64,000 bases of DNA from a bacterium (GCA_017963805.1 JAGCTE010000037.1:30074-94073); one strand, 5' to 3'; positions 4,142 to 61,578 are shown, counted from the stretch's first letter. Numbers and translations: made by a program. The notes: generated from the sequence alone by a model not told the origin.

Positions 4142-4143
4142 AT

Positions 4144-5100: not shown

Positions 5101-5102
5101 AG

Positions 5103-6689: not shown

Positions 6690-6702
6690 AAGGGAAACGC
6701 TC

Positions 6703-7993: not shown

Positions 7994-8030
7994 GACGCCC
8001 CGTTCGTATGTTCGAGCGGGGCGTTTTTTT
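7994..8030 (+). terminator. Rho-independent terminator of the kds-lpt operon
   Basis: The stem cgccccgttcg (7996-8006) pairs with cgagcggggcg (8013-8023), with one wobble. A T7 run follows at 8024-8030, about 30 nt after the lptB stop. Confidence 0.75.
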
Positions 8031-17264: not shown

Positions 17265-18415
17265 ACATTTTCATACTGGCGCTCTTTGTTTCCGGCGCGC
17301 TTTTTGGAGGCGAACTTGACAGCCTCGCCACCTACGGCGAGGTGGAAGAGCATTTTAAAAAGCTTGGCTCCACCAACGCTTTTTACGAGGCGATGAACGT
17401 CATGAAGGCGCGGCATCCTTTCGATTTCTCGCCGGAATACAAAAAGGCGGTGGCGGCGCATTTCGCCGAGATAACAAACATCAACGCGAATGTCAAGCCA
17501 AGCTATCTCTACCGCACGCAGGCGCTGTTTGCCATGGCTTTCGGCCCCAAGAGGCTCTTTGCCAAAGAGCCTGCCGCGCTGAAAAAGAAACTGGACGGGA
17601 AAACGAGCTGGAAGGAGACCTACGCCCCCGTGTGGCTGAAAGTCGCAAAGGATGTGGAATCGCTGCCTTTGCCGGACGGAAGACACTGCGACGTCCTGCG
17701 TCAAAAGAAAGCAGGCGGCAAGGCGCTGCTCTTCTGCCACGGCGGCGGCATGATCCTTCCGCCCATGCTGCAGCACTGGGACTTGGCGCTCTACTTTCTC
17801 AAAAACGGGGAGAGGGATGTCTGGTTCCCGGACTACCCGTTGATCCCGGATACGGACATGTACCGCTCCACCACGACCTGCTTTGAAGCCTACAAGGAGA
17901 TGCTGAAGGTTTACAAGCCCGAGGATATCGCTTTCTTCGGCGATTCCGCCGGCTGCGCGCTTTGCCTTACGGTCTGTTTCAGGGCCAGGGACAACGGTCT
18001 CCCTCTGCCCAGCCGCCTCTTCCTCTTTTCTCCCGCGCACATCGACGTCAGCGAGGAGAACTGCAGGGAGGAGATGGATATCATCGCCCCTCTGGACATC
18101 CTGATACCGTTGCGGCTCATCGACAACTTGAACGTTTTCCTGCGTCCCGGGAAGGAAGCCGCTCACAACGAGTGCGACCCGTACCACGGGGAAATCGAAG
18201 GCTTCCCGCCCATGGACATCTTCACCGGCAGCAAGGAGGTCTTCTCCTCCCACGCCATCCGCTTCTACGAACTGGCGAAAAGGAAGGGGATAGACGCCAC
18301 GCTTAAGATCGGGAGATCGGTCATGCACGACTGGATCCTCATGCCCTTGGGCGAGGAGAGCCTGGAAGTGAGGAGAATGATAGCCGAAAAACTTAAGAAT
18401 GATAAAATTAAATAA
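17252..18415 (+). CDS. Secreted alpha/beta hydrolase, hormone-sensitive-lipase (family IV) type esterase
   Basis: HGGG oxyanion motif (LLFCHGGGMILP) and GDSAG nucleophile elbow (FFGDSAGCAL). Signal peptide MAKINIFILALFVSGALFGGE. 13-nt overlap with the end of paralog B. Confidence 0.75.
   Translation: MAKINIFILALFVSGALFGGELDSLATYGEVEEHFKKLGSTNAFYEAMNVMKARHPFDFSPEYKKAVAAHFAEITNINANVKPSYLYRTQALFAMAFGPKRLFAKEPAALKKKLDGKTSWKETYAPVWLKVAKDVESLPLPDGRHCDVLRQKKAGGKALLFCHGGGMILPPMLQHWDLALYFLKNGERDVWFPDYPLIPDTDMYRSTTTCFEAYKEMLKVYKPEDIAFFGDSAGCALCLTVCFRARDNGLPLPSRLFLFSPAHIDVSEENCREEMDIIAPLDILIPLRLIDNLNVFLRPGKEAAHNECDPYHGEIEGFPPMDIFTGSKEVFSSHAIRFYELAKRKGIDATLKIGRSVMHDWILMPLGEESLEVRRMIAEKLKNDKIK
18400..18408 (+). 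promoter_or_regulatory. Candidate internal extended -10 promoter (TGATAAAAT) ahead of paralog C
   Basis: TGnTAAAAT sits inside the last codons of the esterase gene, ~32 nt upstream of the ATG at 18440. An AT-rich (AAATAAATAAATAA) spacer and an AGGATA RBS follow. Confidence 0.3.
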
Positions 18416-18439: not shown

Positions 18440-21400
18440 ATGAAAAAAGCACTTCTGCTTTGTTCGCTCGCGGCTGTTTTCACCGCGGTTTCTTTCGCCA
18501 CCCCGCCGAAGGATATTCTGACCGTCGACCTCACATGTCAGGAGCCGCCAACCATAACGGGCGGCTATGAAAGGGACATCACCAAGCTCCAACCCAGCGA
18601 TCTGCCGGAGCAGATCGAAGCGCTGGAAGTGGGGGACACCATTTTCTTCAATTCCCCGGACGGCGTTTTCACCGGCAAATGCACGGTCGCCTACCGCGAC
18701 ATCAACCTTGTGGAAGTCAGAGCCGGCTATTTCCAGCCCCGCATGAACGGCTACAACGAGATCTGGCGCTTCACGTTCGACCAGGACCAGATGCTAGGGC
18801 AGGTTGACTACACCTACCTCAACCACGAATACGCCATACTCTACAGCGACAGGACGAAAAGGCTGACGGCGCTCGAACCGCCCAAAAGGAGCTTCACCTG
18901 CGGCGGCTGCGACGGACCCATCGACGACGTTATCGCTAGGGACGGCGTGAGGCAGATAATGGACAAAATGGAAGCCGAGCAATACTACACCAACGACTGG
19001 CGGTGCGACGAATACGTCACTCAGAACTACATGATCGTCTACACTAAGGAGGCTTTGGAAGAGGCGAAGTCCCGGGGCGGCATCAACAACGTCATGGCCC
19101 AGGGCATCGTTTTGGGAACGCTTATCCTAAGCAACAGCCACGTGAGGTCGTGCTTCAACCTCGTGCATTCCCAGCTCGTCGATTATCCCAACCCGGTGGG
19201 CGAGATCTGCAATTCCAGCCTCGCGCTCAGCAGCCTGTGCAACTCCAGGAACGGGCTTGAGCAGATCGAGCAGCTGAGAGCCCGCTACGGCGCCGACATG
19301 TGCTCGATCGCCGTTCTGATGCCGACCTACACCGGCCTTGCCTACGTGTCTGGCGGCGTGGCCGGCAGCGAGAGCTCCGCCAACAACTGCATGGACGTGA
19401 ACTTCGTCAACACCACCGGCTGGATCCACGAGGACGGCCACAACATGGGCGGCCAGCACTACGACGAGACCGGAACGAGCAGCGGCGGACTCTTCGGCCA
19501 CAGCCACGGCTGCCACAACACGCCTCCCGGGGCGCCCATGGAGTACGGTTCGGTCCTGGCCAGATCCAACGGCATTTTCAACTATTTCAGCTCCACCAAC
19601 ATTTTCTACGACGGAGTGCCGATCTCCACGAACCTGAAGTGCCAGGTGGCGCTGACCTGGGAGAAGACCAGGCGCTACGCCGCGCGCTACCGCTCCGTCC
19701 CTTACCACGCCGCGGGAGACATGCTTCTGCACGAGAGCTTCAATTACCCGATCGGCAGCGGCTTGATGTTCAAGGAAGGCGGCTGCGGCTTCGCTTCGCC
19801 CTGGTACGCCTGCCTTTCCAACATTTTCTACATTCAGGACCGGGATCTCGGCGACGAACAAGCCATGCATGAAGGCGGAAGCCTAAGGATCTGCAACGAG
19901 GGTTCCGAGACGGCCACCACCAGGCGCTTCATCAACTGGATGGATTATTCTCCCGCCTCTCTTACCACGCTCGCCGGCCATGACCTCTGGCTTTCCGTCT
20001 GGGCCGACATGGACGAAGAGGGCGGCTCTTACGGCTACGGCGGTTTCAGGCTCGGCGGTTCCTACGAAGCCTTCACCTTCTACAGGGACGGCACGATCAA
20101 CACGTTCGATTTCGGCACCGGCTACAAGCACACCTTCGGAACGCCCGCCCACTACCTGGTCCGCTGCACGATAACGACCAACGAGACCGGCTACGCCTAC
20201 ACTGACGTCTACATGTGGGTCAACCCGGATATGACGACGGAACCCGATGATTCCGACGCGGTCTTCCACAAGTACGGCTACTCTTACTGGGGCTCCGGTT
20301 TCTCCAGTCTGTATCTCTACGCGCCCTCCGGCTTCAAGATGACCTTCGACGAATTCTGCCTGGGCTACACCTTCGATTCAATCAAGAACAGGGCCGTGCC
20401 TTACGGTTTCGTCTGCCTGAACGGCGACGACAAGATAAAGTTGCGCTGGCGCAACACCTCGAAAGGGGACGTCTCATTGTGGCGCAACACCGTGGAAGAC
20501 CTCGCCACGGCCGTCAAGATAAGGGAAGGGGACAGCACCTTCCAGGCTTACGACGACGCGGACGCCGTCCCGGGCCAGACTTACTTCTACTGGCTGACCG
20601 GCGACTTCCCGACTCCGGAACCCAGAAAGGGCGTCAGGGGCATTCCCGACGTCAGCGCGGAATGTAACGGCGAATACGTGATCGGTCAGGGCCAGGCGGC
20701 GCATCTTTCCGCGGAAGGCAGCAAAGGCTATTTCCCGGCCGTGCGCTGGATCGTCGGCAACGACATGACGCTTTTCTCAACAAACTTCTATTACTACGAC
20801 TACAAAGAGGACCAGATCTATTGGCCGGGCGATTACAATGTGGAGGTGAGGGTGACGGACCGTCAGTTCAAGACCGCCGTCTGCACCAACTACACCATGC
20901 TGCATGTCACCAATGCGTACCCGCACGTCGCCATCTGGAGCGAAGCGAGAACGAGAATGGTCGACGTGCCTCAGATCTTCACCGCCGATCCCAAAGACCC
21001 CGGCATCCACGACACGCTTGACATCCGCTGGGATTTCGGCGACGGCGGCGGCTTCTCCGACTGGACGAACTATTACTTCGCCAGGCACACTTACGAAGCG
21101 AGCGGAACGTACACCGTCAAGTGCCAGGTCAAAGACAATTACGGCGCCTGGACGGAAACGACTCTGCCTTACGTCATCGACGCTTCCGAAGCGCGCCCCG
21201 TGGTCCCGGCGACCCTTACGCTGGAAAACGGCCGCAGCGGCGTTTTGCTTCTCTCCAACCTCGGCTCCGTTCCCTGCGATTACGTCATCAGGAATTCCTT
21301 CGATTCCCTTAAATTCGCGCCCGTCAGGGGCACGATAGATCCCACCGCTTCCGGATCCGTCCCGGTGGCCGTGTGGATCGATCCCCTTAAGACCGGCGGA

Positions 21401-23101
21401 ATGGCCAAGAACTTCAACGTCAAGGTCGCGATAGGGGATACGGAATACGACTTGGTCGTAAGCACTCCCGCCATCACAGACCACGTCGTCGATCCCAACG
21501 GCCCGTACGTGGCGCACCGCGGCTCGAAAGTGACGCTTGACGGCACCGGCACCATGGGCGGATACCGCTACAAGTGGCTAGTCGACGGGGAAGCGGTTGG
21601 CGAAGCCAGCGCCAGCTTCATGGAGACTATCACGGCCGATTACGGCGTGGGCGAACATACGCTGACGCTGAGGCTGGAGAAGGGGACGGGCGCCGTTTTG
21701 GCCACCACCAACACGACGCTGACCATCATTGACAACAATCCTAACGTCTACCTTGCGGAGACCGCTTCGCTTGGCACTACCGTGACGTACGAGCCCACAG
21801 TTGTGCCGCAAGACAGGGAAGGGCTGCAGGTCCGCTACAACTGGGACAACGGAGCCGGCTGGACGATCTGGCAGGACCTTGGCCCCGTGGAGCACACCTT
21901 CGAGAAAGACAGGCCCTATTACGTGCAGTGCCAGATCAAGGACGAAAACGGCAACATGAACAGCACGGCCTTGTATTACGACGGCAACAAGCCGCTCTCA
22001 GTCAGCGCGGCCTTCCCGGACAACACCCAGGATTACACCTGCTATTCCGGCAAGCCCGTAACCATCAAGACCAGCTTCCTCTTGGGCAAGAGAGTCCTGT
22101 GGCGCCAGGATCCCTACAATCCCGTAAGGAACATCCTCAGCGCCTCGGAAGGCAGCGAGATCACCTGCTCCACCGCGGTGCCGGGCGTTTATTACATCGC
22201 TGTCTACGCCGCGGACGACGAATTCGTGAGCTCGCCGAAGATCCTGAAGCTGACGGTATTGAAGTTCGAACCGGTTCTCCCCGAGAACCACGTGATCTCC
22301 GGCGTCGTCTGCACCAACACGTATTTCGGCAGCGGATTCCTTGGCGGCGGGCTTGTGAGAGCGGTGGGCGACGGGTTCGCCTTCGCGGTCTCCAACAGGG
22401 CGGACGGCACCTTCATCTTCGACGCCGTGCCGGCTGGCAAAGTTTACCTTTCCTTCTCCCACGACGAATTCGAAGGCAGGATCGCAGAAGTGGTTTTGAC
22501 CAATTCCGCCAAGTGCGTGGTCTTCGATACGGAAGCCACCGGTAAGCACGGCTTCGTCTACGCCGGCGTGGCGGACGACAACTCCAACTTCCCCCTGGTG
22601 GACGCCGAGGCGCAGATCGCCAACTTCAAGTCGACCGTCACATCCGCCGGCCGCACCACCGCCTTCACGCTGCCTTACGGCGAATACATCATGACCGTAA
22701 GGTACGGCGAAAGGACGCAGTATGTGACGAACGTGACCTCCTCGACCGGCACGCCGACCATACCTGTCAGGATGACGGGCTACAGCCCCTACGTTTCCGG
22801 CTTTTTGTACGGCACCGGCTGCGAGATAGTCACCAACGCCCAGATCCAGGTGGTCAACGCCAAGACGCAGAACATCGTTCAGCGCCACAACATGAACGGG
22901 CTGCCTTTCTTCGACATCTACCTCGGGCTCGATCAGACGGCCGTCCTGAGGGTCAGGCCGGTCGATTACGACAACCAGAACTATACCGTGACGACGGAAG
23001 GAAGTTTCTACAAGGATTTTGTCCTGACGCCGGAACCGGCTTCTTTTATGTTCTTTATTCTGGCGCTCATGGCATTCTTGCGCCGTAACCAAAAATGTTA
23101 A
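18440..23101 (+). CDS. Giant secreted metzincin-like / LamG-like / PKD-repeat protein with PEP-CTERM tail (paralog C, 1553 aa)
   Basis: Signal peptide MKKALLLCSLAAVFTAVSFA. Zinc site HEDGHNMGGQH, followed by YGSVLAR. Textbook PKD signature: WDFGDG at 21029-21046, then ..HTYEASGTYTVKCQVKDNYG. Terminal TPEPASFMFFILALMAFLRRNQKC. Most similar to paralog B. Confidence 0.72.
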   Translation: MKKALLLCSLAAVFTAVSFATPPKDILTVDLTCQEPPTITGGYERDITKLQPSDLPEQIEALEVGDTIFFNSPDGVFTGKCTVAYRDINLVEVRAGYFQPRMNGYNEIWRFTFDQDQMLGQVDYTYLNHEYAILYSDRTKRLTALEPPKRSFTCGGCDGPIDDVIARDGVRQIMDKMEAEQYYTNDWRCDEYVTQNYMIVYTKEALEEAKSRGGINNVMAQGIVLGTLILSNSHVRSCFNLVHSQLVDYPNPVGEICNSSLALSSLCNSRNGLEQIEQLRARYGADMCSIAVLMPTYTGLAYVSGGVAGSESSANNCMDVNFVNTTGWIHEDGHNMGGQHYDETGTSSGGLFGHSHGCHNTPPGAPMEYGSVLARSNGIFNYFSSTNIFYDGVPISTNLKCQVALTWEKTRRYAARYRSVPYHAAGDMLLHESFNYPIGSGLMFKEGGCGFASPWYACLSNIFYIQDRDLGDEQAMHEGGSLRICNEGSETATTRRFINWMDYSPASLTTLAGHDLWLSVWADMDEEGGSYGYGGFRLGGSYEAFTFYRDGTINTFDFGTGYKHTFGTPAHYLVRCTITTNETGYAYTDVYMWVNPDMTTEPDDSDAVFHKYGYSYWGSGFSSLYLYAPSGFKMTFDEFCLGYTFDSIKNRAVPYGFVCLNGDDKIKLRWRNTSKGDVSLWRNTVEDLATAVKIREGDSTFQAYDDADAVPGQTYFYWLTGDFPTPEPRKGVRGIPDVSAECNGEYVIGQGQAAHLSAEGSKGYFPAVRWIVGNDMTLFSTNFYYYDYKEDQIYWPGDYNVEVRVTDRQFKTAVCTNYTMLHVTNAYPHVAIWSEARTRMVDVPQIFTADPKDPGIHDTLDIRWDFGDGGGFSDWTNYYFARHTYEASGTYTVKCQVKDNYGAWTETTLPYVIDASEARPVVPATLTLENGRSGVLLLSNLGSVPCDYVIRNSFDSLKFAPVRGTIDPTASGSVPVAVWIDPLKTGGMAKNFNVKVAIGDTEYDLVVSTPAITDHVVDPNGPYVAHRGSKVTLDGTGTMGGYRYKWLVDGEAVGEASASFMETITADYGVGEHTLTLRLEKGTGAVLATTNTTLTIIDNNPNVYLAETASLGTTVTYEPTVVPQDREGLQVRYNWDNGAGWTIWQDLGPVEHTFEKDRPYYVQCQIKDENGNMNSTALYYDGNKPLSVSAAFPDNTQDYTCYSGKPVTIKTSFLLGKRVLWRQDPYNPVRNILSASEGSEITCSTAVPGVYYIAVYAADDEFVSSPKILKLTVLKFEPVLPENHVISGVVCTNTYFGSGFLGGGLVRAVGDGFAFAVSNRADGTFIFDAVPAGKVYLSFSHDEFEGRIAEVVLTNSAKCVVFDTEATGKHGFVYAGVADDNSNFPLVDAEAQIANFKSTVTSAGRTTAFTLPYGEYIMTVRYGERTQYVTNVTSSTGTPTIPVRMTGYSPYVSGFLYGTGCEIVTNAQIQVVNAKTQNIVQRHNMNGLPFFDIYLGLDQTAVLRVRPVDYDNQNYTVTTEGSFYKDFVLTPEPASFMFFILALMAFLRRNQKC
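19427..19459 (+). other. Zinc-binding consensus HEDGHNMGGQH (paralog C, residues 330-340)
   Basis: Read directly from the DNA: cac gag gac ggc cac aac atg ggc ggc cag cac, in frame with 18440. Confidence 0.75.
23027..23098 (+). other. PEP-CTERM sorting signal of paralog C
   Basis: The terminal sequence TPEPASFMFFILALMAFLRRNQKC has the PEP motif, a hydrophobic helix and a basic tail. Confidence 0.7.
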
Positions 23102-23110
23102 GGATCATTT

Positions 23111-23506
23111 ATGGCTCTTTCCGCAATCGCTTCCTACAACGGCGACCTTAAGTGCACCGCCAAATTGGCGGGCTCCCAAACTTCCATCGAGACCGACGCC
23201 AAGGGGACGCCGGGCGTCTTTTCGCCGACCGACGTGCTGTCCGCCGCACTGGCCTCCTGCACGGCCAGCATGATCGGCTTCGTGGCCGCCCAGCAGAAAC
23301 TGGACATGACCGGCCTTTCGGTGGAAGTAGGGAAAGAGATGCAGCAGTCTCCCGCTTCCGTAAAGACTTTCAAAGTGAAAGTCGTTTTCCCCAAGATCGC
23401 CCTTGACGATCCCATGAAGAAAAGGCTGGAGGGCGCGGCCAAAGCCTGCCCGGTGAAGAACAGCCTCAATCCGTCAATCGAAATAATTACCGAATTTGTC
23501 TACTAA
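23111..23506 (+). CDS. OsmC/Ohr-family protein (peroxiredoxin-like)
   Basis: 131 aa. SPTDVLSAALASCTASMIGFVA and AAKACPVKNSL blocks, with the two conserved Cys spaced as in the OsmC family. Confidence 0.8.
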   Translation: MALSAIASYNGDLKCTAKLAGSQTSIETDAKGTPGVFSPTDVLSAALASCTASMIGFVAAQQKLDMTGLSVEVGKEMQQSPASVKTFKVKVVFPKIALDDPMKKRLEGAAKACPVKNSLNPSIEIITEFVY

Positions 23507-24941
23507 ATTTTCAGACCGCCTTTTGATGCTGCGCCCGCTCTGCGCGGGCGCGGCTCTCTTTTTCCTCGTCCTTTCCCAGTTCGTTTTCCGACTGCAGTTC
23601 GGGCCGGGGGGGGCGCTCGCTTCCGCGGATTCCGCGAAATATGTCCGCATAGCGCTTGAGGGGGGCCTGCCTCACACGCCGCTTTTTCCCCTTTACACGC
23701 TGCTGCTTCGCGTCTTCGCGCGTCTGAGATTCCTTTACGAGCCGGGGGCCAACCTCGCGCTTTTCTCAGCGCTTCTTGTCGCTTTGGGGTGCGTGTTCCT
23801 CTGGGACGCGCTGAGCCGCCGCTTCAAGGACCGCTTCTTCACTTTCTTTTCCGTTTTGGCGGTGAGCTTTCTGCCCTTCATTGTCACGGCCGCGACGGAA
23901 GTGACGCCCGTTTCCCTCTCCCTCTGCCTTTTCTTTTTCGCCTACGCCGTCCTTTCGAACGACAGCGTTCCGCTGCCCTTGAAATTCGTTCCCTGCGGGC
24001 TCCTTGCTTTCCATGATCCCCTGGCGCTCTGGTTCTTCGCGCTGCTTTTTCCCTTCGCCGCCGTTTTGCTTTTCAAAGCCGGGAAGGGCAAGGCTTTCAT
24101 AACAGGCGTCTTTTTGGCGCTTGCCATTGGCTTGCTTCCTTACCTGTACGCCGTTTTGGTTTTCCAAAGAGGGGAGAGCTGCGAATATCTGAGAAGGGAA
24201 GACTTCCTGAAAAGCCTGGTTTGCGCCGTCCTGAACGGCCAATTCTGGAGCAATTACTTTGTCCTGCCGTTTTCAAATTACGGTGAAAGCCTAATTAATT
24301 TCTGCCGCGCCTTTTTCATATCTTCCGCTCTTTGCCTTTACATTGTTCCCGTTCTCCTTCTCGGCCTTTTCTACAGGAAAGCCAGGGCGTTCGCCACAAT
24401 CGAGAACACGAGCGCCTTCGCCGCCGTCACGGCGACCTTTTTGTTTTGCGTTCCGAGCTTCCATTTCTACATCGCGCAGTGGTTCTGGCTCCTCAACGCG
24501 TATCTTGCGGTCTTTTTGGCTTGCTCTTTCGTTTACATCTCAAAGGCGAAGGAGATGCGGCCGGCGCTTCTTCCTCTTGTTTTTATCGGCATCCTCGTCA
24601 TGGCCGTCCACAGTTTCGGCCATGTTCTCGAAAGGAGAAGCTCTTTCGAGGCGTCGAAGCTTGCCCAGGCCTTCGGAGCGCTTCCCTTTGGAAGCGTTTT
24701 GGTGACCGAGGACGTTTACACCGACGGGGAATTTTACCGCTATCATCTCGCCGCGCTGCCTAAGCTCGTTTCCAAAGACGTCACGGTCGTATCCGAGATC
24801 GTCACGGGCAAAAGGAATTTCTTCATTTCGCCCGCCGTGAAAAATTTTCTTTTGGAGCACGACGTGCCTTTTTATCTTGTAAGCGACGTCGACGGCCTTG
24901 CCGTTTACGAACTAGGGGAGAAGGCTGACGGTGAAAAGTAA
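23496..24941 (+). CDS. Polytopic membrane protein, DUF2723/TMEM260-like GT-C glycosyltransferase candidate
   Basis: About 10 or more predicted TM helices. The N-proximal segment ADSAKYVRIALEGGLPHTPLFPLYTLL resembles the DUF2723 signature. The track start is TTG at 23496, overlapping the OsmC end; the first ATG is at 23526. Family call from motif memory only. Confidence 0.45.
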   Translation: MSTKFSDRLLMLRPLCAGAALFFLVLSQFVFRLQFGPGGALASADSAKYVRIALEGGLPHTPLFPLYTLLLRVFARLRFLYEPGANLALFSALLVALGCVFLWDALSRRFKDRFFTFFSVLAVSFLPFIVTAATEVTPVSLSLCLFFFAYAVLSNDSVPLPLKFVPCGLLAFHDPLALWFFALLFPFAAVLLFKAGKGKAFITGVFLALAIGLLPYLYAVLVFQRGESCEYLRREDFLKSLVCAVLNGQFWSNYFVLPFSNYGESLINFCRAFFISSALCLYIVPVLLLGLFYRKARAFATIENTSAFAAVTATFLFCVPSFHFYIAQWFWLLNAYLAVFLACSFVYISKAKEMRPALLPLVFIGILVMAVHSFGHVLERRSSFEASKLAQAFGALPFGSVLVTEDVYTDGEFYRYHLAALPKLVSKDVTVVSEIVTGKRNFFISPAVKNFLLEHDVPFYLVSDVDGLAVYELGEKADGEK

Positions 24942-26412
24942 GCCTTGGCTGATCGATCTCCTTTTGCTTTTCCTTTTGGCAGCCGCGGCCTACCTTTCCT
25001 CGTTCAAAGGCGATTGGCAGTTCGACGACTTCAGGTGCATCGTCGACAACGAGGCGCTGAAAAGCGGATCGCTTTCGAGACTCTGGCGTTTTTCTCCCGG
25101 GCGCTTCCTTGTCTTCCTTACCTTTTGGGCCAATTATGAATCCTGCGGCCTCGACATCTTCTGGTACCATTTCGCCAACCTTTTCATCCATGTCCTGAAC
25201 GGCTTTCTGTTCTACTATTTTCTTCTGCTCCTGCAGGAAGCCGACGGAAGCGACGGGGAGAAACGTTTCCCGGCCTTCATGTGCGCCGCGCTCTTCTTGG
25301 TCCATCCCGCGCAGACGCAGGCGGTGACCTACATTGTCCAGCGGCTGGAACTGATGTGCTTCACTTTCATTCTGGCGCATCTGATCTTCCTGCTTTTGGC
25401 CTTGAAAAACAAGCTCTTCTATATCCCGGCCGCCATCGTTCTCGCAATGGGACTTTTCTGCAAGGAGAACATGGCGGTGGCTCCGCTGATCGTCGCGCTG
25501 GGATACTTCGTTTTCGCCTCCTCGGACCTTAAGACTTTTTTCAAAGAGAAAAAGAAGATTCTCGCCCTTGCCGCGGCGGTCTTTTTAATTCTCTGCCTTG
25601 CCGTTCTGCGTTTCGCGGGCGTCTGGAAGGGGACAAGTTTCGACTTTTCGCCGCTGCAGAGGCTCTACGCCGACACGCCCGACCTTGCGGCTTATTTCGC
25701 CACGCAGTTCAAAGTCTGGGCCGTTTACCTCAGGCTGTGCTTCTGGCCCTTCGGGCTTCGGCTGGAGTACGACGTTCCCCAGGAAGGTTTCGCTTCGCCC
25801 TTTGTCATATTGGCGATACTCTTTTGGCTCGCCCTGGCGGTTTTCGCCTTCATAAACCGGAAAAGATGGCCGTACCTGGCTTTCGGGCTGGGCTTTTTCG
25901 CGCTTGCGCTTTCGCCCGCGGCCACGCTCATTCCCAACGGCCTCTATGAGCACCGCCTTTACTGCGCGCTGCCAGGCGTCCTTATAGCTGTCGTTTTCAC
26001 GCTGTTTCCCAAAAAGAATCTTTACAGCGCGGCTTTTCTGATCGCTGTCATTCTGCTTTTCACCCACGCGGCTTTCCAGCGCAATTTCTACTGGAGCGAC
26101 GCGGAGCTGATCTGGCGGGACAATCTCAAATACTCTCCGGAGAACTTCCGCGTGAACGCCAACGTCGGGCAAGCGCTTATGGCAAGAGAACGGTATCTCG
26201 AGGCCCTGCCGTACCTGAAAAAAGCCATAGAGCTCAGGCCCCAGACGGTCGAAGCCCACTACAACCTCGCCTGCTGCCTGGCAGGCATGGGGGATCTTAC
26301 GGGCGCTAGGGAAGAGCTGATCGTCGCGAAAAAGCTGAAGAGCAAGCTCCCGGAAGTCAAGCGCCTCGTGGATGAAGCGCTGAAAGCGATCGATCAGGCT
26401 TTGGCCGAGTAG
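24931..26412 (+). CDS. TMTC-like (DUF1736/PMT_2-type) GT-C membrane protein with C-terminal TPR repeats
   Basis: GTG start overlapping the previous gene by 11 nt. The first loop motif is YLSSFKGDWQFDDFRCIVDNEAL. A polytopic body is followed by a TPR tail (YLEALPYLKKAIELRPQTVEAHYNLACCLAGMGDLTGA). Paralogous to 43422-45239. Confidence 0.6.
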   Translation: MKSKPWLIDLLLLFLLAAAAYLSSFKGDWQFDDFRCIVDNEALKSGSLSRLWRFSPGRFLVFLTFWANYESCGLDIFWYHFANLFIHVLNGFLFYYFLLLLQEADGSDGEKRFPAFMCAALFLVHPAQTQAVTYIVQRLELMCFTFILAHLIFLLLALKNKLFYIPAAIVLAMGLFCKENMAVAPLIVALGYFVFASSDLKTFFKEKKKILALAAAVFLILCLAVLRFAGVWKGTSFDFSPLQRLYADTPDLAAYFATQFKVWAVYLRLCFWPFGLRLEYDVPQEGFASPFVILAILFWLALAVFAFINRKRWPYLAFGLGFFALALSPAATLIPNGLYEHRLYCALPGVLIAVVFTLFPKKNLYSAAFLIAVILLFTHAAFQRNFYWSDAELIWRDNLKYSPENFRVNANVGQALMARERYLEALPYLKKAIELRPQTVEAHYNLACCLAGMGDLTGAREELIVAKKLKSKLPEVKRLVDEALKAIDQALAE

Positions 26413-27470
26413 AGCGCGAAAGTGCGTTTCACCATCTCTTGTGCGGAGAATTCGGTCAGCGCCCTTTCCCTGGCCGCGTTTCCGAGCCGCAGCCTTCTTT
26501 CAGGATCGCCGTGGAGGGCCTTTATTGCCCCGTTTAGGGCCCTGACGTCGCCGGGGGGTACAACTATCCCGGTTTTGCCGTCCAAGTTGACGTACGGGAC
26601 GCCGGAGGGCAAATCGGTGCTGATCACCGGCTTCCCGGCCTGGAAAGCCTCCAGCTGCACGATCCCGAAGGCTTCGCTTCGCACTGTGGAGGGCAGCACG
26701 AAGAACTCGCAGTCCGAATAGTATTGAAGCAATTCTTCTTTGGAGACGTGTCCCGGGAACTTCACGCGCTGCGCGATCCCTTGGTCTTCCGCGAGCTTTT
26801 TGAGCTCTTTTTCCAAAGGACCGCAGCCCACTATCACAAGGTCTAATCCGGGAGCGCCGGCAAGGGCTTTAATGAGAACGTCGAAGCCCTTGTAATAGAC
26901 CAGTTGTCCGACAGAGAGCGCAAACGGGCGCTCCGTTTTTCGGGGAGCGGGAAAATCGAGGGCGGGAAGGCCGTAGTGTATGACCTCCAGTTTTTCTTCC
27001 GGCAGTTTGGAAAGGAAGGGGGAAAATTTTATGTGGTTGGGAGTGGCGACGATTATCTTTTCCGCGCTAAAAAGAGTGGAACGATGGAAAGGCGCGTACA
27101 GTTTCAGGAGATATTTCTGCCTTATGATGTCGGAGTGATAGGAGACAAAGAGCCGCCCAGGCCTCCCGGCCAGTTTCCAGCTCGTCTCCGCCCAGGGGTT
27201 TGGAAGATGGATGTGCACGATGTCGGGCTTCAGATCCTTTAATTTTTTCGGAAGCCCCAAAAGGAAATCCGTGCTGTTCAAGTGAAGGCTCCTTCCGAGC
27301 CTTACGACGCGCACGCCCCCTATCTCTTCCTCTATTGTCTCTTTATTGCCGTTGCTGACCAGAACGGTAAGGTCGCATATGGGAGCGAGCCCTTCCGCAA
27401 GGGTCTTGAGATAAGTTTCGATGCCCCTCTCGTAGGGCCAGTAGTATTTCCCGACGTGGACGACGCGCAT
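26394..27470 (-). CDS. Glycosyltransferase family 4 (GT-B, retaining type)
   Basis: 358 aa. Starts MRVVHVGKYYWPYERGIETY, with a C-terminal EAFGIVQLEAFQAGKPVISTD (E-x7-E region). Its 3' end overlaps the convergent gene ending at 26412 by 19 nt. Confidence 0.8.
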   Translation of the reverse strand: MRVVHVGKYYWPYERGIETYLKTLAEGLAPICDLTVLVSNGNKETIEEEIGGVRVVRLGRSLHLNSTDFLLGLPKKLKDLKPDIVHIHLPNPWAETSWKLAGRPGRLFVSYHSDIIRQKYLLKLYAPFHRSTLFSAEKIIVATPNHIKFSPFLSKLPEEKLEVIHYGLPALDFPAPRKTERPFALSVGQLVYYKGFDVLIKALAGAPGLDLVIVGCGPLEKELKKLAEDQGIAQRVKFPGHVSKEELLQYYSDCEFFVLPSTVRSEAFGIVQLEAFQAGKPVISTDLPSGVPYVNLDGKTGIVVPPGDVRALNGAIKALHGDPERRLRLGNAARERALTEFSAQEMVKRTFALYSAKA

Positions 27471-27505
27471 AGAAAAAAGCCCCTTTCTTGAAGGGGCTTT
27501 CTTTT
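27471..27505 (-). terminator. Hairpin + T-run between the lipoprotein gene stop and the GT4 start (terminator / SD-masking hairpin)
   Basis: The minus-strand sequence reads AAAAGAAAGCCCCTTCAAGAAAGGGGCTTTTTTCT, followed directly by the ATG. The 9-bp stem is AAGCCCCTT/AAGGGGCTT and a T6 run follows. The 3' arm contains the only SD-like AAGGGG for the GT4 gene. Confidence 0.65.
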
Positions 27506-28171
27506 TTAGAAGGTTATCTGCGAGACCGCGTTGTGGAAGGTCGTTCCCTTCAGCAGCTTTCTTCTCAGATATTCCCTGACGTCGGGAGTCGCCCAGGCGT
27601 AAGTGGAGGTTGCGGTGGACTGGATGTTCTGCTCACTGATCCTAGAATTGGCCTTGAGGTCGTAGACGAAGACGGAAACGTTGAGGTTGCCTTCGATGGT
27701 GGACCATTCGACGAAGTTCGCGTTGGCGCCCAGGCCCTTGGCGTAGCATTCGTTGATGTGGAAGACCAGAAGGTAATCGTAGTTGAATTCGTCGGCTTCG
27801 GCTCTGTCTTTGACCGTAACGACGCGCTTGAAGATGGAGTAACCTCTCAGGCGGTTGAAAATGGCTTCGGCGAAGGCCTCGTTGGTGTTGTCCTGGAAGA
27901 CCTGGCCGTCGTCGTTGACGTAAGGATGGTCAAGCACGGTCACTTCGCCGCTGCCGTAGATGAAGCGCGGGAGCCACCAGCGGTGGTAGGTCTCGGAGAG
28001 CGCTTCGTAGTTGTCGGTCGGTTCGCCGTAGGGCATGATGCACAGCGTCTTGCCTTCGAAGGCGCCGTTGTTCAAGGCCAGCGGCTGAGGGTACGTCACG
28101 TCGCTGGTCGCGCAGCCAAACATTAGGAAAGTAAGAGCGGAAAGTACGGATAGTAAAACAAACTTGCGCAT
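27506..28171 (-). CDS. Hypothetical lipoprotein
   Basis: MRKFVLLSVLSALTFLMFGCATSD carries a lipobox (MFGC). GGAGAC RBS. 221 aa, ending in ..QITF. No family recognised. Confidence 0.6.
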   Translation of the reverse strand: MRKFVLLSVLSALTFLMFGCATSDVTYPQPLALNNGAFEGKTLCIMPYGEPTDNYEALSETYHRWWLPRFIYGSGEVTVLDHPYVNDDGQVFQDNTNEAFAEAIFNRLRGYSIFKRVVTVKDRAEADEFNYDYLLVFHINECYAKGLGANANFVEWSTIEGNLNVSVFVYDLKANSRISEQNIQSTATSTYAWATPDVREYLRRKLLKGTTFHNAVSQITF

Positions 28172-28185
28172 ATTGTGTCTCCTTA

Positions 28186-29229
28186 CTAGTCAATGGTTGG
28201 GAAAGCGGGAAGGTTGTTGAGCATTTCGGCTTCGCTTTGCGGAGCCGCGCCGGGCAGCGTGCCGTCCGGGGCGATGTCAAGGCCGGTGGAGCCGCCGCGT
28301 CCGTAATCCGGGACGGGGACGGAGCCGCTCTGCGGGGCGGTCGGCATCGTGGATTCCATGATGCTGTTCACCTTGTTGTTCAGCTGCTCGTCCTGAGAGA
28401 GGGGAGAACTGAAGTCGGTCGGGATCAGGGTGATGACCACGCGGCGGTTCAGACGCTGGCCGTCGGCGGTGGCGTTGCTGGCGACAGGCCTGTTGGCGGA
28501 GTATCCGGAGATGGCCATGCGCTTAGGATCGACGCCGCCCTGCTTCTCGAGGAAATGGAGGACAGCCAAACTTCTGGCCGCGGAGAGTTCCCAGTTGGAC
28601 ATGAAGTTGGAGCCTTCCGGCAGTTCGTTGCTGTCCGTGTGGCCTTCGATGGCGACCAGGAAATTGGGATACTCGGAATTGACGACGCGCCCGACTTCTT
28701 CAAGAACGGGGTAGACGGCTTCCCTCAGCTGCGCTCTGCCTTCGTCGAAGAGGACTTCGGAGAGCATCGTGATCTGGGTCGTGCCTTCCTTGGTCGTCTC
28801 GACCTGGACGTAGCGTCCGTCAGCCTGGATGTTGTTGGCCAGAACGTAGCTCTTGGCCACGATCTCTTCGTATCTGGCGGCCATCATCTTTGTCCTGGCT
28901 TCCATCTTCGCCAGCTGTTTCTCGTATTTGGCGACCACCTTGGTGGAGACCTTGGCTTCGCCGCTGTACTTGTCAACGTCGGCGTAGTCTTCCAACATGC
29001 GCGCACGGTGGATCTCGTAGGCTTCGCCGGCGATCGCGCCGGTCAGAAGGCCCGCGCCCGCTCCGGCGCCCGCGCCGATGGCGACGCCTACGCCGCCTCC
29101 GGCCGCGCCGATGCCGGCGCCCATGCCGCCTCCGATTAGACCGCCTATGAGACCGCCGCGCTGCATGGCGGTACAGGCGCTAAGCATAAGTGCCAGTATA
29201 GCTATTGTGGTAAGGGAAGATCTTTTCAT
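28186..29229 (-). CDS. OmpA/MotB-domain lipoprotein with N-terminal glycine-zipper
   Basis: Lipobox MLSAC. A Gly-rich GLIGGLIGGGMGAGIGAAGGGVGVAIGAGAGAGAG segment is followed by a coiled-coil region. The C-terminal OmpA-like block is VAIEGHTDS..SNWELSAARSLAV..NRRVVITL. Confidence 0.8.
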   Translation of the reverse strand: MKRSSLTTIAILALMLSACTAMQRGGLIGGLIGGGMGAGIGAAGGGVGVAIGAGAGAGAGLLTGAIAGEAYEIHRARMLEDYADVDKYSGEAKVSTKVVAKYEKQLAKMEARTKMMAARYEEIVAKSYVLANNIQADGRYVQVETTKEGTTQITMLSEVLFDEGRAQLREAVYPVLEEVGRVVNSEYPNFLVAIEGHTDSNELPEGSNFMSNWELSAARSLAVLHFLEKQGGVDPKRMAISGYSANRPVASNATADGQRLNRRVVITLIPTDFSSPLSQDEQLNNKVNSIMESTMPTAPQSGSVPVPDYGRGGSTGLDIAPDGTLPGAAPQSEAEMLNNLPAFPTID

Positions 29230-29879
29230 TCAGAGACCTCGCTTGTTTTTAACGTGGACGCTCCGTCATCCTTTTGTTCATCGCCTTTCTTTAGGAATCC
29301 GAAGATCGCAAAGCAGCCGATGAGAAGGATGAGGAACGCTATGGTTAATATGTTGAAATATTTGTCAATAAACGCTTTTATTTTTTCGCCGAAGATCCTG
29401 ATCAGCCCGGCGACCAGGAAGAAGCGGGCCGAGCGGCTGACCGCCGAGGCGATTATGAAGGGCCAGAAGGCCATTCCGAAGACCCCGGAGGCGATGGTGA
29501 AGATCTTGTAGGGAATGGGCGTGAAACCGGCGGCGAAGACGCACCAGAAGCTGTATTTCAGGTAAAGCTTCTCGACCGTCGCGAAACCTTCGGGCGTGAA
29601 GCCCGGAACGTAAGTGAAGAAGAAATCCTTCGTCACGCTCCAAAGGAAGGCGCCGATAACGTAGCCCAAGACCCCGCCGAGCACCGAGGAGACGGAACAC
29701 CAAAGCGCGTACCATAGGGAGCGCTTCGGCTTCGCGAGTGACATGGCGATCAGAAGAGGATCGGGCGGTATGGGAAAGAACGACGATTCCGAAAAGGAGA
29801 GCAAATTGAGCGCCAGGAGCGCGTAGGGGGAGGGCGCGCACCTCATGACCCAGTCATAGATCTTGCGCAGGAAGCCCAT
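29226..29879 (-). CDS. DedA/YqaA-family (SNARE-associated) membrane protein
   Basis: 217 aa. The motif ESSFFPIPPDPLLIAM is typical of the YqaA/DedA family. Several TM helices. ATGA overlap with the OmpA-like gene. Confidence 0.75.
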   Translation of the reverse strand: MGFLRKIYDWVMRCAPSPYALLALNLLSFSESSFFPIPPDPLLIAMSLAKPKRSLWYALWCSVSSVLGGVLGYVIGAFLWSVTKDFFFTYVPGFTPEGFATVEKLYLKYSFWCVFAAGFTPIPYKIFTIASGVFGMAFWPFIIASAVSRSARFFLVAGLIRIFGEKIKAFIDKYFNILTIAFLILLIGCFAIFGFLKKGDEQKDDGASTLKTSEVSE

Positions 29880-30260
29880 TTACTCTTTCTTTTCAAAGAC
29901 CGCTATGGGATTGACGCGAAAACGGAAAGTCATCTCCTGGTCGCCCATCTTGAGGCTGAGGAGAGAGTTGAGCCTTGTCAGGAGAAGCTGGTAGGGGATC
30001 TTGACTTCCTCGTCCTTGACTTTGATCCCGATGCTGGCCTGTCCGAGAAGGTCCCTGGACTCGTAGACCGTTTCCAAAAGTTTGCTGAAACGTTTGATCT
30101 GGTCGGCCAGTTCCGGGGTGAAAGAATAAGTTTTGCCGCATTCCTTGCAGGTCAGCAGCGTGTCGGGGTTGAGGTCGAGAAGGGAGAATTCCACAGCGTG
30201 GCCGCAGCCGACGCAGTTGAGCTCGATCCTGTGGGCGTCAGTTATTTTTTCCGTGTTCAT
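29880..30260 (-). CDS. Hypothetical zinc-ribbon protein
   Basis: 126 aa with CVGC..(20 aa)..CKEC, a four-Cys ribbon. TAAATG junction with the DedA gene. No family recognised. Confidence 0.5.
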   Translation of the reverse strand: MNTEKITDAHRIELNCVGCGHAVEFSLLDLNPDTLLTCKECGKTYSFTPELADQIKRFSKLLETVYESRDLLGQASIGIKVKDEEVKIPYQLLLTRLNSLLSLKMGDQEMTFRFRVNPIAVFEKKE

Positions 30261-30285
30261 GTGTTCCTATTTTGTTTTATAGTAG

Positions 30286-30294
30286 ATTATACCA
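30286..30294 (-). promoter_or_regulatory. Candidate extended -10 promoter (TGGTATAAT, minus strand)
   Basis: The reverse complement of gattatacca reads TGGTATAAT. It lies ~26 nt upstream of the ATG at 30260 and just downstream of the tRNA terminator. Confidence 0.4.
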
Positions 30295-30316
30295 TTTTGT
30301 CCTTTTTTGTGGGAGG

Positions 30317-30345
30317 CAAAAAAAAGACACCCTTTCGGGTGTCTT
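30317..30345 (-). terminator. Rho-independent terminator after tRNA-Glu
   Basis: The minus strand reads AAGACACCC-GAAA-GGGTGTCTT followed by T8, 7 nt after the tRNA 3' end. Confidence 0.75.
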
Positions 30346-30351
30346 GAATTT

Positions 30352-30427
30352 TGGCGCTCCATAGGAGAATCGAACTCCTGTTTTGTGGATGAGAACCACA
30401 TGTCCTAGGCCACTAGACGAAAGGAGC
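30352..30427 (-). tRNA. tRNA-Glu: tRNA-Glu (anticodon CUC), CCA encoded
   Basis: The reverse complement folds by hand into a cloverleaf:
- Acceptor stem: GCTCCTT / ATGGAGC, with one U-U mismatch.
- D arm: GTCT-AGTGGCCTA-GGAC.
- Anticodon arm: TGTGG-TTCTCAT-CCACA.
- T arm: AGGAG-TTCGATT-CTCCT.
- Discriminator G, then CCA.
The overall layout closely matches E. coli tRNA-Glu. Confidence 0.9.
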
Positions 30428-30437
30428 GGATATTCTA

Positions 30438-30608
30438 TTATTCCTCGCTGATGGCGCCGGCAGGGCAGACGCTGGCGCAGAGGCCGCAGGACACGCACTT
30501 CGCCGGGTCGATCTGATACTGGCCTTCGCCTTCCGCGATAGCGCCCTGGGGGCATTCGGAAGCGCAAGCGCCGCAGGAAAGACATTCTGAGCTGATTTTG
30601 TAAGCCAT
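30438..30608 (-). CDS. 2x[4Fe-4S] clostridial-type ferredoxin (56 aa, absent from the ORF track)
   Basis: The reverse complement translates to MAYKISSECLSCGACASECPQGAIAEGEGQYQIDPAKCVSCGLCASVCPAGAISEE*. It has two CxxCxxCxxxCP motifs and a GGAGA RBS 7 nt upstream. At under 60 aa it was missed by the track. Confidence 0.85.
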   Translation of the reverse strand: MAYKISSECLSCGACASECPQGAIAEGEGQYQIDPAKCVSCGLCASVCPAGAISEE

Positions 30609-30650
30609 AATTTCTCCTACATATGTGGGGTTAAAAGTAAGGTTACGGAA

Positions 30651-30659
30651 ATGGTATCA
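30651..30659 (-). promoter_or_regulatory. Weak extended -10-like element (TGATACCAT) upstream of the ferredoxin gene
   Basis: The reverse complement of atggtatca reads TGATACCAT, ~43 nt upstream of the ATG at 30608. The hexamer is imperfect. Confidence 0.25.
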
Positions 30660-30668
30660 GAAAAGCGG

Positions 30669-31790
30669 TCAAAAGTAAAGACTCAGGGTCTTCTCATAGA
30701 CGGCGCGCGTGTCGGCGGCGCACTTCCCCCAGGAGAAAATCTTCGCCCTTTCTTTGGCTTTCTTGGAAAGATCGCTCCTTAACCCGTCGTTTTGGAAGAC
30801 TTCGAGCATGGCTTTTTCCCAGAGCTCCTCTTCGCCGCAGGGAAGAAGCATTCCGGCGCCGCCGACCACTTCGGGAAGCGAAGAGGAGTCGGAAACGACA
30901 ACGGGAGTGCCTTCGCCCATCGCCTCCAAAACAGGGAGCCCGAAGCCCTCGTATTTCGAAGGGAAGAGGAAAGCCAGGGCGTTTCTGTAATAGTGCGGAA
31001 GGTCGCCCAAGGGAACGTAGCCTTTTACGACGACGGAATCGCCGAGCCCTTTTTCCCTTATCGTCTCGAAGATCTCGTCGGAGAGCCAGGTAGGGGAGCC
31101 GGCCAGCACGAGTTTCGGAAGGCTTTTTTCCTTCGCTTTGGCGCGGGCGTAAGCTCTCAGAAGCATCGGGATGTTTTTCCTCGGCTCCAAATTTCCGAGG
31201 TAGAGGAAATATTTATCCGGCAGCTTTTCTTTGAAGTTGGGATTCGCTTTCGTGAACTCGAGCCCGCCGAGGTAGACCGTCGTCACTTTTTCAGGCGGAA
31301 CGTCGTAAAGTTCCGTAAGCTCCCTTTTCGAAAAGTCGCTGATGGTGATGAAATGATCGGCGCATTTAAGGCGCTTCTTGAAGTAGCTCTCGAAGTACGA
31401 GCGGCGGTCTATTGGATGCGTTTCGGGATACCTTATGAGGGACATGTCGAAGACCGTCACGACCTGCGGTCCCTTGTAGGGGAGAGGGACGTAGTTCAGC
31501 TCATGGTAAATGTCCGCCTTCTGCCTTCCCGCGCCGAGCCTGAAAAACATTTCCTTCACGGGCTGGGTGATGCGGTACGGTTTCGGGAAGCACTTCTTCA
31601 GGGCTTTCCTCAGCCCGGCGTCGAAAGCGGGTGCGTCGTCAAGGATCTCGCTTGAAAAGCGGCGCCCGTAGAAGTAGACGTGCTCGTCAAGCGGATAATC
31701 CCTCGCGAACGCTTTCAGAAGATTCAGGGTGTAGTAGCCGACTCCCGATTTGGGGGCCAGAAGAGGGAATGCGTCGAAGAGAACGCGCAT
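30669..31790 (-). CDS. Glycosyltransferase family 4 (GT-B)
   Basis: 373 aa. Starts MRVLFDAFPLLAPKSGVGYYT, with a C-terminal FPSKYEGFGLPVLEAMGEGTPVVVSD (E-x7-E). Confidence 0.8.
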   Translation of the reverse strand: MRVLFDAFPLLAPKSGVGYYTLNLLKAFARDYPLDEHVYFYGRRFSSEILDDAPAFDAGLRKALKKCFPKPYRITQPVKEMFFRLGAGRQKADIYHELNYVPLPYKGPQVVTVFDMSLIRYPETHPIDRRSYFESYFKKRLKCADHFITISDFSKRELTELYDVPPEKVTTVYLGGLEFTKANPNFKEKLPDKYFLYLGNLEPRKNIPMLLRAYARAKAKEKSLPKLVLAGSPTWLSDEIFETIREKGLGDSVVVKGYVPLGDLPHYYRNALAFLFPSKYEGFGLPVLEAMGEGTPVVVSDSSSLPEVVGGAGMLLPCGEEELWEKAMLEVFQNDGLRSDLSKKAKERAKIFSWGKCAADTRAVYEKTLSLYF

Positions 31791-31791
31791 A

Positions 31792-34353: not shown

Positions 34354-34395
34354 CTTGAAAGCCCCTAATTATTATTTACAAAGTTAATTTTATTC

Positions 34396-34404
34396 ATTCT
34401 ATCA
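34396..34404 (-). promoter_or_regulatory. Candidate extended -10 promoter (TGATAGAAT, minus strand)
   Basis: The reverse complement of attctatca reads TGATAGAAT. It sits in the AT-rich 59-nt gap, ~43 nt upstream of the ATG at 34353. Confidence 0.35.
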
Positions 34405-34412
34405 AAAGTCTC

Positions 34413-50589: not shown

Positions 50590-50594
50590 AAGAA

Positions 50595-61566: not shown

Positions 61567-61578
61567 AGTATTTCTCCC

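Follow-up and report, generated by a model that had tools for sequence, protein, structure and literature searches.

Two overlapping genes, here called A and B, lie in a 64,000-nucleotide stretch of bacterial DNA (GCA_017963805.1 JAGCTE010000037.1:30074-94073; the whole stretch is referred to below as the window), and appear to encode a conserved, translationally coupled pair of GT-C glycosyltransferases that would face the periplasm and act on shared protein clients. The animal proteins that A and B resemble, TMEM260 and TMTC1-4, respectively, are disease genes; that they catalyse two O-mannosylation pathways, each specific for a type of domain, has been recognised recently. In the gut lineage to which the window belongs, the most likely clients are three giant proteins encoded upstream of the pair, but the pair would be specific neither for these giants nor for immunoglobulin (Ig)-like folds. 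We assign this reading a probability of about 0.5.

Two results carry the argument. At the level of sequence, we show that each protein is homologous to a protein O-mannosyltransferase family and keeps residues of the donor-site and catalytic type, and we show that A-type and B-type genes stand strictly adjacent across divergent lineages. An initial annotation of the window had proposed that the two enzymes glycosylate the PKD/Ig-like repeats of the three giants. Both of the open reading frames (ORFs) that it delineated are present on the plus strand (Table 1), and its link to a substrate is plausible within the lineage but not general; the conserved pair of enzymes from two families is the more interesting and the better supported finding.

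Relationship of A and B to animal O-mannosyltransferases

Direct searches with A as a single sequence returned nothing from Pfam, NCBIfam or the PDB (phmmer), and the membrane domain of B likewise found no match in Pfam, NCBIfam or the PDB, so that profiles were needed for both. For A, a word-indexed search yielded only 19 homologs, all unannotated, and these became the basis of an alignment and profile (A1). When the A1 profile was compared with 177,635 PDB sequences, the sole match was human TMEM260 (9rql_A, E = 5.9e-4), in an alignment spanning residues 18-417 of A and 29-453 of TMEM260. Within the A1 alignment, conservation is highest in ADSAKYVRIALEGGLPHTPLFPLYTLL, where D45, S46, A47, K48, G57, H60, P62, P65, L66 and Y67 are invariant, and this stretch aligns with a block of human TMEM260. 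The resemblance of this motif in the 481-residue protein to the DUF2723 signature, remarked on in the initial annotation, is real, and for A as for B the likeness to the animal enzymes goes far past what chance would give.

An exhaustive search of 1.84 billion representatives with the A1 profile collected 730 proteins. All ten that were sampled from these lie above the threshold of the DUF2723 model, PF11028 (gathering score 24.2 bits), and the longer matches consist of PF11028 with or without tetratricopeptide repeats (TPR). Closer to A, the model weakly matches seven of 14 close family members (best E = 1.8e-4), and the nearest relatives of about 480 residues (P0124, P0126, P0127, P0129 and P0132) pass it with 31.8-61.2 bits. 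These comparisons support the assignment of A as a predicted, divergent TMEM260/DUF2723-type GT-C enzyme. An AlphaFold (AF2) model of A (predicted local distance difference test [pLDDT] 73, predicted template modelling score [pTM] 0.79) was also compared with a fold library using Foldseek: ArnT was the top match (E = 5e-5), followed by ALG9, STT3, AftB, Pmt4 and DPY19, all of them GT-C, and the TMEM260 structure was not among the matches. Profile and structure searches of A, both suggested in the initial annotation, have thus led to TMEM260 and to GT-C folds, respectively.

Protein A is laid out as a membrane core (about residues 1-375) followed by a small C-terminal alpha/beta domain (about 395-481). 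It ends about 90 residues past the last transmembrane (TM) helix, and Pfam detects no TPR in it. The key conserved residues are D45, K48, H60, E135, E230, Q249, F250 and D406, and several of these coincide with functional residues of TMEM260 that are named in a structure preprint (10.64898/2026.03.17.711096). D52 and H67 of the TMEM260 sugar-recognition motif, both of which are essential, correspond to D45 and H60 of A; Y267, which binds sugar, corresponds, in a stretch of uncertain local alignment, to F250, with the aromatic character kept; and D441, the catalytic base of the luminal Rossmann-like domain, which deprotonates the acceptor threonine (10.64898/2026.03.17.711096), corresponds to D406. 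H60 and D406 are invariant in all 23 A-type sequences and D45 is kept in 22 of the 23, down to about 30% identity. The match between D406 and D441 (LLRGDLPG against VTEDVYTDG) has a moderate alignment posterior and falls in a domain much shorter than that of TMEM260.

Profile comparison shows protein B to be clearly homologous to the membrane domain of the TMTCs, and the protein ends in a short TPR tail. The TMTC-type membrane domain occupies residues 1-390 and about three TPR repeats follow at 390-493, where Pfam reports TPR_1, TPR_2, TPR_8, TPR_11 and TPR_19 (residues 384-490) and the structural model has six helices; the C-terminal TPR repeats described in the initial annotation are thereby confirmed. 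For the membrane domain (1-392), more than 100 homologs were found, mostly proteins of 500-700 residues with TM and TPR segments; a few of them carry PMT_2, and some are labelled 'protein O-mannosyl-transferase' by JGI. A profile (A2) made from 27 trimmed membrane domains of the family found nothing among PDB sequences, and the 27 members matched no GT-C family in Pfam; A2 does reach proteins that carry PMT_2 above threshold. DUF1736 (PF08409) gave no match at E <= 1 in B or in the 27 family members, the TM7-TM8 loop of B being shorter, and one protein of the B family (P0306) reaches 25.2 bits against DUF1736, under the cutoff of 27. Against eight animal TMTC N-domains, the B membrane profile scored 150-184 bits end to end (E 4e-42 to 3e-52), and hhalign aligned it with TMTC at a probability of 100% (E = 5.5e-46, 375 columns).

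The published TMTC motifs, which include KET(Q)xxT, DW and ERxxY for metal and phosphate binding (PMC7801869), can be followed through much of this alignment. The segment YLSSFKGDWQFDDFRCIVDNEAL, which the initial annotation had read as an acidic first-loop motif of the 493-residue protein, aligns with the TMTC FV(F/Y)DD block, and the counterpart of the DD pair, D32-D33, is invariant in 47 sequences. Indeed, acidic residues of the first loop are conserved after alignment in both A and B. Of the TMTC SHKSYRP motif (EL1), only R58 is invariant; B itself reads SPGRF and distant family members read YRPL. The HP.HTEAV..GR motif has its counterpart in HPAQTQAVTYIVQR (H125-P126...R138) and KET(Q)xxT in K178-E179, which is nearly invariant, while the position of DW is taken by E280-Y-D282 and that of ERxxY by E340-H-R-L-Y344, in which E and Y are in register and R342 is offset by one. 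H80, N83 and H87 are further motif residues of B. For KET, DW and ERxxY, the predicted correspondence is close but not exact.

Are A and B two branches of one family? When compared by hhalign, the A and B profiles showed no relationship, and the A profile also had no match to the TMTCs. A and B are therefore not paralogs, and the operon encodes one member each of two GT-C families. Membership of either protein among the Wzy/O-antigen polymerases was considered and rejected; the Wzy_C-like gene of the window is a separate ORF (31792-34353).

The gene pair inside and outside the gut lineage

The reading frames of A and B overlap by 11 nt, and a convergent GT4 gene abuts B on its downstream side. 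A and B are the last two genes of a seven-gene, same-strand array, G1-G2-Abh-G3-OsmC-A-B (the giants G1 to G3, an Abhydrolase_3 gene, an OsmC-like gene and the pair), in which neighbouring genes overlap or are separated by intergenic gaps of at most 24 nt. A strong terminator-like hairpin 3' of lptB (Table 1) is likely to be the upstream boundary of this transcription unit. The pair had been described as lying directly downstream of the giants; A and B are indeed downstream, but the conserved OsmC-like gene intervenes between giant 3 and A. This OsmC-like protein is of the peroxiredoxin type and normally a cytoplasmic redox protein. In the rumen lineage its gene always separates A from the last giant, while pairs in other lineages have no such neighbour.

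Within GTDB, the A family is found in only eight species representatives, all of them uncultured ruminant-gut metagenome-assembled genomes (labelled 'Bacterium RGIG...' or 'bacterium UBP3_UBA3054') with no phylum assigned. The order OsmC-A-B is kept in 18 of 18 lineage loci, and a giant lies 5' of OsmC in 15 of the 18, which is to say wherever upstream sequence exists; the Abhydrolase_3 gene is kept at its position in many of these loci. The order giant-OsmC-A-B also holds at loci with other genes downstream and with an A of only 40-50% identity. The conserved block supports the existence of a functional operon, with all of the loci coming from a single lineage. At one locus of this lineage (L017:1325-4897, plus strand), the slot of the second giant is held by a PEP-CTERM protein with Lamin-tail (LTD), CHB_HEX_C/Fn3-associated and CotH kinase domains.

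A GC-rich hairpin followed by a U-run (Table 1) sits within codons 11-20 of A, 22 nt past the OsmC stop, and is kept in homologous lineage loci down to about 50% identity of A. It may be an attenuator that holds the expression of A and B under that of the giants; alternatively, it could be a by-product of a conserved LRP..AGA peptide.

Outside the lineage, the B homologs at three loci (L020, L021 and L032; 34-35% identity) are each directly preceded, with overlap, by a PF11028 protein of about 480-495 residues. A metagenome scan seeded with distant A-type proteins added ten more loci, in which a B-type gene comes next wherever downstream sequence exists. An A-type gene followed by a B-type gene is thus found at all 18 lineage loci and at 12 of 12 out-of-lineage loci, and the two genes usually overlap. 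Within 10 kb of the pair, none of these 12 has a homolog of the giants, of PKD or of OsmC, and their flanks likewise hold no homologs of the Abhydrolase_3 or GT4 genes. Because all 12 distant loci keep the pair without the giants, the conserved unit is the A-B pair and not the pair plus giants.

Outside the lineage, no third gene recurs consistently with the pair. Two candidates, an HTH_GRAD-type cytoplasmic protein (four loci) and a UvrD-like helicase (three loci), were rejected, since they show no relationship to one another and the window has neither. One distant locus (L020:552-7626, plus strand) carries two PEP-CTERM PQQ beta-propellers (1368 and 679 residues) and a MamF/MmsF-like protein directly upstream of the pair and on the same strand. 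More distant members of the B family stand alone: these are P0040, P0052 and the second TMTC-like protein of the window (Table 1), whose gene has no A-type (TMEM260-like) partner and is flanked by a glycoside hydrolase gene (MGH1/trehalase-like) and, on the other side, by a small ORF that neighbours dnaX.

Candidate clients and competing explanations

By analogy with the animal enzymes and with other GT-C enzymes, each member of the pair would take its sugar from a polyprenyl-phosphate carrier, probably an undecaprenyl-phosphate-hexose made by a GT2 enzyme encoded elsewhere, and would transfer it to Ser/Thr residues of proteins at the periplasmic face of the inner membrane during their export. 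A would provide a TMEM260-type core and a truncated luminal-type domain bearing the aspartate equivalent to the TMEM260 catalytic base; B would provide a TMTC-type core and a short TPR arm that, to judge from TMTC topology, should lie on the periplasmic side. The TPR arm of TMEM260 is needed, and also suffices, to recruit its acceptor, the IPT domain (10.64898/2026.03.17.711096). Since A and B are always encoded together, and since A lacks an acceptor-recruiting TPR while B has one, the two proteins most likely act as a complex or sequentially on common clients, for which Pmt1-Pmt2 and POMT1-POMT2 would be the model. Given the tight and conserved operon of the gut lineage, the giants are the best candidates for substrates at hand.

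The giants are paralogs (30-41% identity), all with signal peptides, and each of them has one Pfam PKD domain along with reprolysin-like, CarboxypepD_reg and Y_Y_Y matches. The metzincin motif HExxHxxGxxH is intact in all three (residues 307, 329 and 330), and BLAST finds no internal repeats, so far as the giants are concerned. They are probably giant secreted metalloproteases. The initial annotation had called them Ig/PKD-rich: PKD is present, but as a single domain per giant, in proteins that are mainly metzincin proteases. It had also called all three PEP-CTERM proteins. By eye, each ends with LTPEP, a hydrophobic helix and a basic (R/K) tail, and no other ORF of the 64-kb window is tailed in this way. 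With the TIGR02595 model (cutoff 16 bits), giant 1 passes at 17.6 bits and giant 3, whose tail is LTPEPASFMFFILALMAFLRRNQKC, falls just under at 14.2 bits; giant 2 is not detected, its tail, LTPEPALIALIALLLALKWRR, being PEP-CTERM-like by eye and negative with the hidden Markov model.

One alternative, which is close to the initial proposal, is that the PKD/Ig-like domains of the three PEP-CTERM giants upstream are the specific targets of O-mannosylation by A and B, much as IPT domains are for TMEM260 and cadherin EC domains for TMTC. Both animal relatives do modify Ig-like folds, there is a PKD domain in each giant, and the seven-gene array is tightly packed, with its giant-OsmC-A-B block retained in 15 of 18 loci, even at 40-50% identity of A and with other genes downstream. 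Yet the giant-bearing loci all belong to one lineage of eight GTDB species, and co-occurrence with the giant family elsewhere, which had been named beforehand as a test of the link, was seen at none of the 12 distant loci, where the pair occurs without giants or PKD homologs. Each giant, mainly a metzincin protease and about 1500 residues long, has a single Pfam PKD domain and no internal repeats. Moreover, the slot of a giant can be taken by an LTD and CotH protein (L017) or by PQQ propellers (L020), and the TPR with which TMEM260 binds the IPT strand is missing from A. We consider this alternative unlikely: the claim of Ig-domain specificity does not survive, and co-location with the giants is seen in one narrow ruminant-gut lineage only.

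Alternatively, the pair may glycosylate exosortase/PEP-CTERM cargo in general, of any fold, acting in the periplasm before or during sorting. The only PEP-CTERM ORFs of the window lie directly upstream and in the same operon. Beyond the lineage, tailed ORFs occur within 10 kb of the pair at L020 (the two PQQ propellers, same strand and directly upstream), L021 (a 170-residue protein), L023 (an S8 subtilase and a 219-residue protein) and possibly L028 (a 127-residue ORF). These neighbours are PQQ propellers, a subtilase and small proteins with unrelated domains or none, which shows that a link, if there is one, would concern PEP-CTERM cargo as a whole and not Ig-like folds. No tailed ORFs, however, were found in the flanks of the pair at L024-L027, and the tails were detected with a home-made regular expression that gave at least one false positive (L025). 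Enrichment near the distant pairs would have to be judged against the background density of PEP-CTERM genes in those genomes, and the neighbours found there are suggestive at most. Nor was an exosortase found in the window or at the loci examined. The claim that the pair glycosylates PEP-CTERM cargo survives weakly, and that this is its general role seems quite unlikely.

The remaining alternative is that A and/or B act on a non-protein acceptor, such as lipid A, lipopolysaccharide (LPS) core, O-antigen, capsule or another envelope glycan, in the manner of ArnT or the mycobacterial arabinosyltransferases, and that adjacency to the giants is incidental. Lipids or glycans are the substrates of many bacterial GT-C enzymes, and an ABC2/Wzt O-antigen-type exporter lies 3' of B at two loci (L004 and L005). 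This possibility still has to be reckoned with, because LPS and O-antigen genes lie on both sides of the array (kdsB/A/D/C and lptC/A/B upstream; GT4, Wzy_C-like and Wzx-like genes downstream) and ArnT is the best structural match of A. Against this, the closest characterised relatives of A and B by sequence are protein O-mannosyltransferases; A keeps the equivalent of the TMEM260 aspartate by which the acceptor threonine is deprotonated; the TPR repeats of B are of a kind that typically binds proteins; and, outside the lineage, LPS and polysaccharide genes are not found beside the pair. We hold a non-protein acceptor to be rather improbable.

A more far-reaching version of the story, in which the pair is an obligate two-family heteromer, with a TPR-less TMEM260-type catalytic subunit borrowing the TPR arm of its TMTC-type partner, and represents what in bacteria corresponds to the two domain-specific O-mannosylation pathways of animals, and possibly their evolutionary source, dedicated to exosortase/PEP-CTERM cargo, seems to us very improbable.

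A conserved GT-C pair with shared protein clients is thus the reading that we favour, even though a number of observations weigh against it. Regarding the enzymes themselves, A does not match the PF11028 model even at E <= 10; as its nearest relatives pass, its membership of the family rests on transitive and profile evidence. R264 and R355 of TMEM260, which bind phosphate and engage mannose, respectively, are not conserved and are replaced by N247 and W329 in A, implying that phosphate binding differs or that the local alignment is off. Foldseek with the full-length model of B (pLDDT 93.8) returned mostly TPR proteins and no GT-C match, and is silent on the membrane domain; hhalign of the B profile (A2) against a single E. 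coli ArnT sequence gave a weak probability of 35%. Regarding the pathway, the window holds no GT2 polyprenyl-phosphate-sugar synthase (Dpm1/GtrB/ArnC-like), as the initial annotation had already pointed out, and no dedicated flippase, and none of the approximately 45 window ORFs scanned is an exosortase. Regarding the clients, only one lineage shows synteny with the giants, where the gene order could simply be inherited, and the abundance of LPS and O-antigen genes in the surroundings (kds, lpt, Wzy_C, Wzx and GT4), together with the match to ArnT, a lipid A-modifying enzyme, leaves room for a glycolipid or glycan acceptor. Finally, that A and B physically interact is something we purely infer.

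Surrounding genes and relation to known systems

The coordinates of the pair and of the other features of the window are collected in Table 1. The envelope cluster that converges on B may supply or consume lipid-linked glycans. The hydrogenase genes near the far end of the window are consistent with an anaerobic, fermentative gut organism.

Table 1. Features of the window, with positions counted from its first nucleotide
Feature	Position	Strand	Description
Kdo/LPS-transport block	2529-7964	+	Complete; kdsB, kdsA, kdsD, kdsC, lptC, two lptA-like genes, lptB; directly upstream of the giants
Terminator-like hairpin	7994-8025	+	13 bp followed by a T-run; 3' of lptB
Giant 1	8081-12628	+	1515 aa; signal peptide, reprolysin-like metzincin domain with HEIGHNMGGQH (residue 307), PKD, CarboxypepD_reg
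Giant 2	12633-17264	+	1543 aa; HEDGHTMGGRH, one PKD; 30% and 41% identity to giants 1 and 3
Abhydrolase_3	17252-18415	+	387 aa; hormone-sensitive-lipase-like; between giants 2 and 3
Giant 3	18440-23101	+	1553 aa; signal peptide, HEDGHNMGGQH, one PKD
OsmC-like protein	23111-23506	+	131 aa; 9 nt after giant 3, 11-nt overlap with A
Gene A	23496-24941	+	481 aa; TTG start, alternative ATG start at 23526
GC-rich hairpin	23528-23554	+	11 bp (10 G-C), about -26 kcal/mol, then U-run; LRPLCAGAALFF
Gene B	24931-26412	+	493 aa; starts with GTG, preceded at about 8 nt by Shine-Dalgarno-like GGAGAAGG
Convergent envelope cluster	26394-35984	-	GT4, lipoprotein, OmpA-like with glycine-zipper N-terminus, DedA/VTT, second GT4, 853-aa Wzy_C/O-antigen-ligase-like, Wzx/MurJ-like flippase
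ORF	37787-39682	-	631 aa; no Pfam match at E <= 1e-3
Second TMTC-like protein with TPR	43422-45239	-	605 aa; 29% identical to B, catalytic motifs kept
ORF	50544-51851	-	435 aa; no Pfam match at E <= 1e-3
ORF	55858-57930	-	690 aa; no Pfam match at E <= 1e-3
HydA-type [FeFe] hydrogenase and NuoF-like HydB subunit	59815-63381	-

How does the pair compare with enzymes that are already known? With TMEM260, the human IPT-domain protein O-mannosyltransferase (PF11028; PDB 9rql), A has in common its GT-C fold plus profile homology over the whole membrane core, a sugar-recognition motif of the form DS..(x11)..H-P-P/T-x-x-P-L-F/Y with the equivalents of D52 and H67, and a luminal or periplasmic domain after the last TM helix that bears the Asp aligned to D441. 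A differs in its length (481 rather than 707 residues), in having no TPR and a Rossmann-like domain of only about 90 residues, in reading DSAK for DSGE, in the loss of R264 and R355, in lying below Pfam detection, and in always being encoded with a TMTC-like partner.

The counterparts of B are TMTC1-4, the animal O-mannosyltransferases of cadherins and protocadherins (CAZy GT105), which carry a DUF1736 loop. The homology extends over the full length of the membrane domain (150-184 bits) and includes counterparts of DD, HP.(H/Q)T(E/Q)AV, KE and E(H)R.Y, and a less clear one of RP, with C-terminal TPR repeats that are non-cytoplasmic in TMTC and presumably so in B. B differs from these proteins in having about three TPR repeats instead of 8-10, a shorter TM7-TM8 loop that the DUF1736 model misses, a SHKSYRP motif reduced to its conserved Arg, and a TMEM260-like gene as its partner.

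For the proposed cooperation, the closest model is provided by Pmt1-Pmt2 and POMT1-POMT2, GT39 dimers in which two GT-C protein O-glycosyltransferases work only together. The PMT partners, however, are paralogs of one family with MIR domains, whereas A and B belong to separate GT-C families between which no similarity is detectable. ArnT (GT83), the lipid A aminoarabinosyltransferase, and TfpW, a pilin arabinosyltransferase of Pseudomonas aeruginosa that has come up in discussions of TPR, are both bacterial inner-membrane GT-C enzymes that use undecaprenyl-phosphate sugars at the periplasmic face. TfpW is an example of such an enzyme glycosylating a protein. The similarity of A and B to these two is at the level of the fold only (as with the 35% probability of A2 against ArnT); ArnT and TfpW have other substrates, and neither belongs to a two-family gene pair. 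Unnamed bacterial homologs have been mentioned, uncharacterised, in earlier papers (PMC10214176 and PMC7801869, the latter for TMTC-like proteins), and in our search of the literature neither a characterised bacterial enzyme of the TMEM260-like or TMTC-like kind nor an account of the A-B pair came up.

The overlapping pair, present in several bacterial lineages, would provide a tractable prokaryotic model for both types of enzyme. It also raises the idea that the two may cooperate, one partner supplying the acceptor-binding TPR, and the operon of the gut lineage supplies named candidate substrates with which that idea can be approached. The finding would also bear on a long-standing question, whether PEP-CTERM proteins carry glycans; and if the pair should prove to be a heteromer dedicated to PEP-CTERM cargo, it would supply the long-suspected glycosylation step of the exosortase sorting system.

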